From an uncultured Elusimicrobiales bacterium (GTDB lineage Bacteria; Elusimicrobiota; Elusimicrobia; Elusimicrobiales; Elusimicrobiaceae), in contig CALUXB010000001.1 of the NCBI GenBank assembly GCA_944324645.1, forward strand, positions 428,837-492,836: 64,000 bases of DNA, read 5' to 3'. The notes under the pieces were generated by a model, which was not told the origin of the DNA, searched no databases, and saw nothing but the letters and a program-made list of their open reading frames with translations. Numbering within the stretch: position 1 is the first letter of the stretch; each line of letters starts with the position of its first letter. Both the position numbers and the translations under genes were made by a program. This document shows positions 7,851 to 11,974 of the stretch, piece after piece.

Positions 7851-8447
7851 ATGAAAATGCTGTTAGAGCGCAAAATAGCGGGGTTTACGCTTATTGAACT
7901 GTTAGTGGTAGTGTTGATTATAGGTATTTTGGCAGCGATTGCACTGCCGCAATATCAGAAAATTGTGGCAAAAACCCGAGTAAGTACCTATTTGCCCGTT
8001 TTAAAAGCTTGGGCCGAAGCAGAAGAACGTTATTTTATAGCTAATGGAAGTTATCCTCCATCTTCCAGCAATGCGGAAGAAATTGAACAGTATTTAGATA
8101 TAGAGTTGTCTAAGATAGTGGAAAATGACAAATCTATGATTGTTATGTCTTTAAAAAATAATTCGTTCTATTCATCTGTTTTGATGAAGTTTTTTGGTGT
8201 TGGTCACTCTAAAATTGTGATTTTATCAAAGATGTTGCAAGGATCGCGTTTATATGGAAATTTATCAACTGAAATTGGTTGTATGGTAATGGACGAGGAG
8301 ACGTTAGATATTTGTACAGCAATATGTGGTCATCAAACTGTGGGGAGAGTCTTTTTTTATGACGAATTTGGTTGTTTAATAGGTAACGGAAATCCTCAGG
8401 CGTATCCAAGAGGCTCCTTTTTATCTGTAGATCCTGCATATAAATAA
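7851..8447 (+). CDS. Type IV pilin-like (PilE-like) protein
   Basis: G|FTLIELLVVVLIIGILAAIALPQY with E5; RBS AAGAGG; visibly AT-richer than flanks. Confidence 0.9.
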   Translation: MKMLLERKIAGFTLIELLVVVLIIGILAAIALPQYQKIVAKTRVSTYLPVLKAWAEAEERYFIANGSYPPSSSNAEEIEQYLDIELSKIVENDKSMIVMSLKNNSFYSSVLMKFFGVGHSKIVILSKMLQGSRLYGNLSTEIGCMVMDEETLDICTAICGHQTVGRVFFYDEFGCLIGNGNPQAYPRGSFLSVDPAYK

Positions 8448-11144: not shown

Positions 11145-11185
11145 AACTGTTCTCCTTTTCAAAATATCTTTGGTAAAACGAGATG

Positions 11186-11233
11186 TAGATATTTTTATAT
11201 CCATATGATACCTGTTTTAAAAAAGTCTGTCAA
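11186..11233 (-). promoter_or_regulatory. adhE promoter with 18-bp palindromic operator
   Basis: Minus strand TTGACA (11233-11228), 17 nt, TATCAT (11210-11205), then TGGATATAAAAATATCTA (11203-11186). Confidence 0.8.
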
Positions 11234-11261
11234 TATATCGTCTAAAATAAAAATGGCGGAC

Positions 11262-11309
11262 TTGACAAAAAAAACAGAAAAGTTTATTATATGGATATTG
11301 AAATATCTA
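11262..11309 (+). promoter_or_regulatory. rex promoter with 18-bp palindromic operator
   Basis: TTGACA (11262-11267), 17 nt, TATTAT (11285-11290), then TGGATATTGAAATATCTA (11292-11309). Confidence 0.8.
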
Positions 11310-11335
11310 GATTTTTAAGACGGGAGAATTTTTAT

Positions 11336-11974
11336 ATGGGCCTTTTTTCCAAGAAAAAAAGCATTAGTGTGCAGACTATACGCCGCCTGCCGCAGTATTT
11401 GCGCGTGCTGTATGATTGGCACGGCTACGGGCGGGAGCTGGCCTCTTCCACTGAGCTGGCGCAGGAAACGCAAGTGCTCCCGATTGTGATTAAAAAAGAC
11501 CTGCAGGCTATAGGTGCCCCCAGCAAAATGCGGGCGGGGTTTAAGATAAAAGGCACCATTACCGCGATTGAGAATTTTCTAGGTTGGGACAATTTAAATA
11601 AAGCTTTTTTAGTGGGTGCCGGGCATTTGGGTGCGGCGCTGTTGGGCTTTTCCGGCTTTAAAAACCACGGGCTTGAAATTGTGGCGGCCTTTGACACGCA
11701 TCCGGAGCGGGTGGGAAATGAAATACACGGCGTGCACGTCTATCATACAGCGCAGTTAAAAAGTGTGATAGAAGAGAAAAAATTAAAAATCGCCGTACTG
11801 ACCGTGCCCGGCCCCGCCGCCCAGGGGATAACCGATACGCTGGTGGCTTGCGGTATAAAAGCGATTTGGAATTTTGCCCCGGTCAAACTGGCGGTGCCGC
11901 CCGATGTGGCGGTGCAGCAGGAAGATATCGCCTCGGGCTTGGCGGAGCTGTGCGCGCAGCTGAAAAGTAAATAA
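11336..11974 (+). CDS. rex: Redox-sensing transcriptional repressor Rex
   Basis: TIRRLPQYLR winged-helix start, SSTELA, GAGHLG Rossmann motif, IKAIWNFAP. Divergent from adhE. Start at 11336 follows GGGAG. Confidence 0.93.
   Translation: MGLFSKKKSISVQTIRRLPQYLRVLYDWHGYGRELASSTELAQETQVLPIVIKKDLQAIGAPSKMRAGFKIKGTITAIENFLGWDNLNKAFLVGAGHLGAALLGFSGFKNHGLEIVAAFDTHPERVGNEIHGVHVYHTAQLKSVIEEKKLKIAVLTVPGPAAQGITDTLVACGIKAIWNFAPVKLAVPPDVAVQQEDIASGLAELCAQLKSK

Follow-up and report, generated by a model that had tools for sequence, protein, structure and literature searches.

A candidate pair of GATA-type Rex operators at the divergent adhE and rex promoters of a gut Elusimicrobiaceae bacterium

Rex is the main NADH/NAD+ sensor setting the fermentation balance in anaerobes. 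Its canonical operator, TTGTGAA-N4-TTCACAA, is that of Streptomyces coelicolor, Bacillus subtilis, Thermus and Staphylococcus, and a second box, TTGTTAA-N4-TTAACAA, is that of Rex in Clostridium acetobutylicum, of the Thermoanaerobacter ethanolicus protein RSP (3WGI) and of Rex_2471 in Clostridium thermocellum. Here we describe two 18-nucleotide palindromes lying between divergent adhE and rex genes in a 64,000-nucleotide stretch of contig CALUXB010000001.1 (the window), which belongs to a gut Elusimicrobiaceae bacterium of the Candidatus Avelusimicrobium type. We consider it likely that they are the operators of the adjacent Rex, boxes of a GATA type, through which adhE would be held under NADH-relieved repression and rex under negative autoregulation. 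One published study describes the clostridial box as a lineage-specific deviation at core positions that controls adhE and alcohol production, and reports repression of adhE by Rex in many anaerobes, along with frequent autoregulation (PMC8457756). Our literature search, in which the key comparative study is known only through the papers citing it, returned no account of a GATA-type Rex box or of Rex in Elusimicrobia. A 2012 abstract by Ravcheev et al. is said to name the clostridial box as the only Rex-box deviation found.

The candidate operators share with the canonical form the layout of an 18-20-bp palindrome with half-site centres 10 bp apart, an A/T-rich spacer, G at position 3 and A at position 6, the overlap with promoters of NADH-recycling genes, including adhE and often rex itself, and the same two-domain protein. 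They depart from it at positions 2, 4, 5 and 7 (T-R-G-A-T-A-T versus T-T-G-T-G-A-A): the window half-site TRGATAT matches TTGTGAA at T1, G3 and A6 only, and 3-4 of the 7 positions differ. Unlike its counterparts at canonical operators, the window Rex also carries Lys where Arg would read the G, Phe where Tyr98 would stand and a non-glycine wing, and its predicted regulon comprises two genes rather than a global set. The clostridial half-site, TTGTTAA, has GTTA where the window has GATA, and the proteins belong to different Rex subfamilies, T. ethanolicus RSP (3WG9) being a distant match to the window Rex (E = 3.6e-30). A is tolerated at position 4 in the GAGA half-site (TTGAGAA) of Thermotoga maritima Rex, which has been solved with the TM0201 operator ATTTGAGAAATTTATCACAAAA (PDB 7WB3), whereas position 5 is G there and T in the window. 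In the T. maritima complex Arg48 reads G and Lys49 reads G and A, corresponding to positions 3, 5 and 6 of the 18-mer, and the wing residues Arg60 and Gly61 touch the outer T-T in the minor groove at positions 1-2 (PMC8836258). These two residues are Met and Arg in the window Rex, and Pro and Lys in sister GATA-type proteins. Across the five aligned half-site types (canonical, clostridial, Thermotoga, window and the outgroup GATA type, ATCGATA or TCGATAW) G3 and A6 are constant, and both are invariant at the window sites. At the level of the subfamily, a wing reading K-P-K in place of T-R-G accompanies the different base at position 2, a plausible case of protein-DNA co-variation.

Members of the same Rex subfamily, by their place in the protein tree, adjoin adhE on plasmid pRUMAL01 of Ruminococcus albus 7 and in Acetivibrio, with ATCGATA...TATCGAT palindromes upstream of rex. 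Unlike in the window, rex and adhE are co-directional there and form one operon, often with hydrogenase genes (-hydS-hydA2), the box has C at position 2, and the proteins keep Arg-Lys and a GKPK or GRPK wing. In A. mesophilus and A. straminisolvens adhE comes after rex, which has GATA boxes upstream, and pRUMAL01 carries an annotated rex-adhE-phosphotransferase-ferredoxin cluster with TATCGATA-AAGATAA-TATCGATA about 70 nt upstream of rex (L240:3838-3865). In C. thermocellum the rex-adhE-hydrogenase cluster Cthe_0422-0432 is among the most down-regulated after furfural, which depletes NAD(P)H (PMC3848806), a behaviour that a Rex-type repressor would give; from the congeners A. mesophilus and A. 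straminisolvens we infer that this region belongs to the GATA-type group. The one Rex of C. thermocellum characterised in a study by DNA affinity purification sequencing is the other, Rex_2471, which uses the clostridial box (PMC8457756).

The forward strand at 11186-11203 reads TAGATATTTTTATATCCA, of which TGGATATAAAAATATCTA is the reverse complement and, on the strand of adhE, the candidate operator O-adhE. It is identical at 16 of 18 positions to TGGATATTGAAATATCTA, the candidate operator O-rex, the differences being confined to the 4-nt spacer. Each 18-mer is a 7-4-7 inverted repeat with arms complementary at 6 of 7 positions, and the two share the consensus T-R-G-A-T-A-T-N4-A-T-A-T-C-Y-A. 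When up to two mismatches are allowed, TRGATAT-N4-ATATCYA has 4 matches in the window against 0.37 expected, 2 of them exact; with no more than one mismatch, O-adhE and O-rex are the only matches in the whole genome (1.51 Mb, 9 contigs). A position weight matrix (PWM) derived from the sites of relatives scores the pair at 28.8 and 27.3 bits, the next best hit of the genome scan reaching 13.3. The 8 weaker hits, all at or below 13.3 bits, were considered as further regulon members and rejected, the best two lying inside a pilin-like open reading frame (ORF) and at the 3' end of a GH57-like gene. Neither the canonical nor the clostridial Rex box was found upstream of any gene in the genome scan: the canonical box has no match without mismatches, and its sole one-mismatch occurrence (C6:59144) lies inside a MutY-like ORF.

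Both palindromes sit at predicted promoters and are strongly conserved. The 191-bp intergenic region (11145-11335) that separates adhE, on the reverse strand, from rex, on the forward strand, holds exactly two sigma-70-type promoters according to a promoter scan; they stand back to back, TTGACA-17-TATCAT for adhE and TTGACA-17-TATTAT for rex, each with an 11/12 match. In 56 related Elusimicrobiaceae loci, with Rex identities of 70-99%, adhE is always divergent from rex, and both sites are always present at the same positions, at about -150 and -45 from the rex start. Across an alignment of 57 intergenic regions, the operator arms are the best-conserved part, with 22 of 28 columns invariant; the means are 1.79 bits for O-adhE and 1.89 bits for O-rex, with 11 of 14 columns invariant in each. 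The -35 boxes have 1.8-2.0 bits (5 of 6 columns invariant in each), and the rest of the intergenic columns average 0.57 bits, with 2 of 112 invariant. A sequence-only reading of this DNA had described back-to-back promoters, each with TTGACA, a 17-nt spacer and a -10 box followed after one nucleotide by an 18-mer of 7-4-7 symmetry, the two 18-mers agreeing at 16 of 18 positions, and this architecture is borne out in full. Its proposal that the 18-mers are operators has gained ground, since they overlap the predicted transcription starts, precede both rex and adhE, co-occur with rex and, once footprinting had been carried out in relatives, proved conserved at both sites in 56 of 56. The genome-wide PWM scan placed both sites at the top and yielded no further regulon members. 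We also observe that the O-adhE spacer (11193-11196; AAAA or CAAA on the adhE strand) is conserved at 1.65 bits, compared with 1.14 bits for the O-rex spacer; it may play a double role as transcription start or A-tract.

Inverted repeats at the very start of predicted transcripts could also be explained as RNA or DNA hairpins, stabilising the 5' untranslated region or acting as attenuators, rather than as protein sites. The chance of this appears very slim, given that the stems show no covariation and the inner five pairs are invariant. Positions 2 and 17 are non-complementary in 68 of 99 sites (A/C in 50 and G/T in 18) and complementary in the others (A/T in 21, G/C in 10), varying independently as purine and pyrimidine. 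This pattern fits a protein tolerating either purine in each half-site, and is unlike that of a selected hairpin. Transcripts beginning at the predicted start, some 7 nt after the -10 box, would moreover omit most of the left arm, and the Rfam search gave no match apart from a noise hit at E = 0.97.

The pair of sites tracks the presence of rex within the genus. Exactly one pair, spaced by 105-109 bp, is carried by 28 of the 41 genomes surveyed; stray single sites amount to two in total, and a pattern scan of the 41 found no recurrent third site. In the 13 genomes checked for both Rex and the pair, all 10 with Rex carry it and all 3 without Rex lack it. The predicted regulon consists of adhE and rex only, because high-scoring sites are found nowhere else in this genome or in the 28 genus genomes that carry the pair. 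Could a different, unlinked transcription factor bind the palindromes, with rex merely one of its targets? GATA-containing palindromes are indeed used by other regulator families, yet we find this highly unlikely: the motif accompanies rex across at least seven phyla whatever the neighbouring genes, it is confined within the genus to rex and adhE and absent from the three genomes without rex, and the 10-bp half-site spacing with conserved G3 and A6 fits the geometry of Rex. In addition, a Pfam scan of the genes beside rex and adhE found no other transcription factor gene adjacent. The palindromes at these two promoters are thus very probably binding sites of Rex.

Two side observations concern the sampled genomes. 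The operator pair is absent from 12 of the 41 genus genomes, including G004, G005 and G009, and rex is absent too from the three of them that were checked. Possible explanations are that these bacteria can do without the rex-adhE module, or that their metagenome-assembled genomes (MAGs), being incomplete, have failed to capture it. Four contigs titled Eggerthellaceae, Duodenibacillus, Muribaculaceae and Spirochaetes (L008, L011, L030 and L032) encode Elusimicrobiaceae-type Rex with 79-87% identity. Three of them have divergent adhE and both operators, and L011 begins inside rex, its upstream part missing. Their other-phylum labels are most likely due to contamination in MAG binning.

Judged by its family and structural matches, the window protein is a true Rex, and a genome search found no second rex paralogue, making the gene single-copy. 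It scores 246.6 bits against the Rex equivalog model NCBIfam NF003994 (cut-off 130), carries the PF06971 winged helix at residues 10-56 (E = 5e-12, 46 bits against a cut-off of 27) and the PF02629 Rossmann NAD(H)-binding domain at residues 88-183 (E = 6e-21), and matches the Rex structures 2VT2, 3WG9, 3IKT and 1XCB near full length (E from 5.6e-35 to 8.4e-30). Its segment PIVIKKDLQAIGAPSKMRAGF aligns without gaps to FQVRKDLSYFGSYGTRGVGY of solved Rex structures, and residues were mapped by gap-free alignment to Thermus Rex onto the T. maritima contacts described in PMC8836258. Arg12 and Ser33, which contact the DNA backbone, are both kept, as is Lys49, the reader of G7 and A8, in the form of Lys54. 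Gln46, which makes a water-mediated backbone contact, is replaced by Val. In the wing, the backbone contacts Gly58 and Tyr64 have become Ser and Phe, and the minor-groove residues Arg60 and Gly61 have become Met and Arg. The recognition helix has K-K in all parsed clade members and R-K in all outgroup proteins, and no clade member departs from the altered helix and wing. The P-loop GAGHLG is present, with its GxGxxG pattern invariant in the clade, and the alpha-9 Asp188/191 is kept (EDI).

Did the GATA-type operator arise together with these protein changes? After the clade itself, the closest Rex proteins (42-48% identity) are those of Omnitrophota, Verrucomicrobiota, Planctomycetota, Endomicrobiaceae and some Clostridia, which keep the Q-V-R-K-D helix with a G-K-P-K-x-G-Y wing. 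In 17 of the first 21 of these sister loci there are like palindromes upstream of rex, of the forms ATCGATA-N6-TATCGAT, ATAGATA-N6-TATCTAT and ATTGATAA-N4-TTATCTAT. Boxes of the form (A)TCGATA-N6-TATCGA(T) lie upstream of rex in Omnitrophota, Verrucomicrobiota, Endomicrobiaceae, Ignavibacteriota and Clostridia (Acetivibrio, Ruminococcus albus), with Arg-Lys kept. We surveyed exact G-x-y-A-N6-T-y'-x'-C palindromes up to 250 nt upstream of rex in 143 non-redundant loci. The GATA core has 155 hits in these upstream regions (35.6 kb), compared with 15 for GAGA, 11 for GTGA, 4 for GTTA and at most 1 for each other core, while the same loci contain 31 copies of GATA-N6-TATC elsewhere in 782 kb, which corresponds to an enrichment of about 110-fold upstream of rex. 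Base composition does not explain this excess, because the GAAA and GTAA cores, as AT-rich as GATA, score zero hits upstream of rex in the same survey. The window and every one of the 53 non-redundant ingroup loci analysed have GATA-N6-TATC upstream of the NF003994-like rex, and exact GATA-type palindromes occur in 42 of the 90 outgroup loci, representing at least seven phyla. We propose to define the GATA-type box as (A)T-[C/A/G/T]-GATA-N6-TATC-[G/T/C/A]-A(T), located within about 150 nt upstream of a rex of the NF003994-like subfamily. On this sequence evidence the box is a property of much of the Rex subfamily and is not unique to Elusimicrobiaceae.

In the Rex tree, the window clade stands on a long branch (0.98 substitutions per site) with full support, nested among GATA-type sequences of Omnitrophota and Verrucomicrobiota. 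The length of this branch, the invariance of the altered helix and wing (IKKD...SKMRAGF) within the clade and the divergence of the flanking positions might suggest a lineage-specific operator that arose with the unusual Elusimicrobiaceae Rex: position 2 is a purine in 100% of Elusimicrobiaceae sites versus C in 70% of the nearest sisters, and position 7 is T in 91% versus A/T in sisters. We nevertheless consider this unlikely, as sisters with the Q-V-R-K-D helix in Omnitrophota, Verrucomicrobiota, Planctomycetota, Ignavibacteriota, Endomicrobiaceae and Clostridia have the GATA-N6-TATC core too, with the same spacing and in the same place upstream of rex. The GATA-type operator predates the clade's helix and wing changes, because its core is common to sister Rex with an unmodified helix; only the flank shifted on the Elusimicrobiaceae branch. 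The sequence-only reading had called the Rex helix and wing atypical, which the alignment of PIVIKKDLQAIGAPSKMRAGF with FQVRKDLSYFGSYGTRGVGY and the invariance of the changes in the clade confirm, and had proposed that this variant co-evolved with a new operator. The departure of the protein stands; co-evolution with a new operator finds no support in that form, the GATA core being shared with unmodified sisters. Nor does the flank shift offer a clean link between protein and operator evolution, as Endomicrobiaceae use TAGATA with an unmodified Rex helix.

The subfamily is not uniform in its boxes. In the tree, GTGA boxes are confined to one Acidobacteriaceae clade, and GAGA boxes occur in other Acidobacteriota, Nitrospirota, some Verrucomicrobiota and Ignavibacteriota. 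In Terracidiphilus and other Acidobacteriaceae (L079, L093-L106, L109, L120) a Q-V-R-K-D helix and a GKPKTGY wing are combined with a CGTGAC-N4-GTCACG box at about -50, which is GC-rich and near the canonical TGTGA-N6-TCACA. The helix residues alone therefore do not set the box type, and a single-residue code for GATA, GTGA and GAGA boxes was rejected, V-Q-V-R-K-D being found with both GTGA (Acidobacteriaceae) and GATA (Clostridia). A further peculiarity is the presence, upstream of rex in many outgroup loci, of two or three tandem GATA-type boxes with an exact 14-bp period (L104 of Melioribacteraceae, L059, L074, L102, L108, L111, L125, L126, L147, L148, L156 and L158). Tandem neighbours share the self-complementary junction TATCGATA, which would place Rex dimers 4 bp apart on different helix faces, and such boxes may form a cooperative array.

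We hypothesize, with chances we judge to be evenly balanced, that a Rex subfamily present in at least seven phyla reads an undescribed GATA-type class of operators, and that Elusimicrobiaceae kept the box, changed the Arg, the wing and the Tyr, and shrank the regulon to an adhE switch. The class would encompass Omnitrophota, Verrucomicrobiota, Planctomycetota, Ignavibacteriota, Elusimicrobiota and Clostridia, and possibly Bacteroidota (a single MAG-labelled contig). As part of this joint hypothesis, and with the same even odds, the Elusimicrobiaceae Rex would be a natural experiment in which a repressor rewrote its reading head and its sensor with its target unchanged.

How would the repressor act at the window locus? 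From the conserved sites and the protein family we infer Rex binding, repression and a response to NADH. One Rex dimer would occupy each site, each of its two recognition helices reading one of the GATA cores, which lie 10 bp from each other, in the register of canonical Rex on TTGTGAA-N4-TTCACAA, with G3 and A6 common to both. Bound Rex would block RNA polymerase at both divergent promoters, because each operator begins 1 nt past the -10 box and covers the predicted transcription start. At low NADH/NAD+ both adhE and rex would be repressed; a rise in NADH would release Rex from the DNA and allow AdhE to be made, which would re-oxidise two NADH per acetyl-CoA. The derepression of rex together with adhE would amount to negative autoregulation, and in this reduced genome Rex may be a dedicated local regulator of the adhE/rex pair.

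Several observations weigh against this reading. The ingroup loci are mutually related and their raw counts are not independent, so that the argument rests on the footprint contrast. An exact N6 palindrome is lacking in roughly half of the outgroup loci and in 41 of the 68 additional loci from Clostridia; the spacing is N7 in at least Ruminococcus albus, given which a search restricted to N6 undercounts clostridial sites. In the protein, Arg48 of T. maritima, which reads the operator G, corresponds to Lys53, a conservative change, and the glycine-rich wing G-x-x-G-x-R-G-x-G-Y is replaced by G-A-P-S-K-M-R-A-G-F (S63-K-M-R-A-G-F69). Finally, the Tyr of the NAD(H) pocket that stacks against the nicotinamide (Tyr98 of T-Rex, Tyr100 of T. 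maritima) is Phe in all 54 clade members, at residue 105 in the motif ALLGF, as opposed to Tyr in 86 and His in 13 of 100 outgroup proteins; the aromatic ring is retained and the hydroxyl lost, and the NADH response could be altered or lost. The NADH response is the least secure step of the proposed mechanism, because Lys stands for Arg, the wing is rebuilt and Phe stands for the sensor Tyr.

The substitution raises the possibility that the sites are Rex operators, and that their Rex is constitutive, differently controlled or shifted in its set point. The hydroxyl of this Tyr in T. maritima Rex is bonded to the ribose of NAD+ and, once NADH is bound, to Asp191 of helix alpha-9 (PMC8836258), contacts that Phe would forgo. 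We regard altered sensing as rather unlikely: this Rex has retained the P-loop, the acidic residue of AAFD and the alpha-9 Asp, stacking on the nicotinamide ring is still available to Phe, purifying selection on the Rossmann domain is clear, and regulating adhE would be physiologically sensible only with a link to the redox state. The NADH-relieved repression of adhE appears to be the better account of the locus, and its GATA-type box is a variant within known Rex regulation, not a new principle.

The features of the locus are collected in Table 1. The adhE start codon is the ATG at 11144-11142, preceded by the ribosome-binding site AAAGGAGAA, which corrects the ATG at 11204 given by the ORF finder, and the rex start codon is at 11336 instead of 11291. 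The ATG at 11291 is in frame and adds 15 codons to rex, but its translation is very unlikely because it lies 1 nt past the -10 box, within the operator. The 212-aa Rex preceded by a GGGAG ribosome-binding site is the common form, and some database entries have 225-242 aa. Several prepilin-type genes with an N-terminal methylation motif were also observed, including one just downstream of adhE (window 7851-8447) and one at C1:584787-585386.

Table 1. Features of the divergent adhE-rex locus, in window coordinates
Feature	Position	Strand	Basis or remark
adhE, bifunctional aldehyde/alcohol dehydrogenase, 881 aa	8499..11144	-	Pfam Aldedh + Fe-ADH + ADH_Fe_C
adhE ribosome-binding site AAAGGAGAA	11150..11158	-	read from the letters; columns conserved across 57 aligned loci
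O-adhE, putative operator TGGATATAAAAATATCTA	11186..11203	-	begins 1 nt past the adhE -10 box
adhE -10 box TATCAT	11205..11210	-	promoter scan
adhE -35 box TTGACA	11228..11233	-	promoter scan; 5/6 columns invariant in 57 loci
rex -35 box TTGACA	11262..11267	+	promoter scan; 5/6 columns invariant
rex -10 box TATTAT	11285..11290	+	promoter scan; moderate conservation, 0.77 bits
O-rex, putative operator TGGATATTGAAATATCTA	11292..11309	+	begins 1 nt past the rex -10 box
rex ribosome-binding site GGGAG	11322..11326	+	read from the letters
rex, redox-sensing repressor, 212 aa	11336..11974	+	NCBIfam, Pfam and PDB matches

Rex regulons are predicted in genomes from the consensus TTGTGAA or TTGTTAA. 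Should GATA-type boxes serve a widespread subfamily, its targets escape scans made with the canonical motif, and regulon prediction would suffer in uncultured phyla such as Elusimicrobiota, Omnitrophota, Verrucomicrobiota and Ignavibacteriota. The same would hold for cellulolytic Clostridia, whose second Rex is positioned on adhE-hydrogenase clusters relevant to biofuel engineering. As a system the Elusimicrobiaceae case is minimal, a single repressor with two operators at two promoters. Escherichia coli is without Rex, and the system could easily be rebuilt there to address what determines specificity (Arg or Lys, and the wing) and what the sensor Tyr does. As to the organism itself, the prediction is that the redox state would directly switch ethanol formation.

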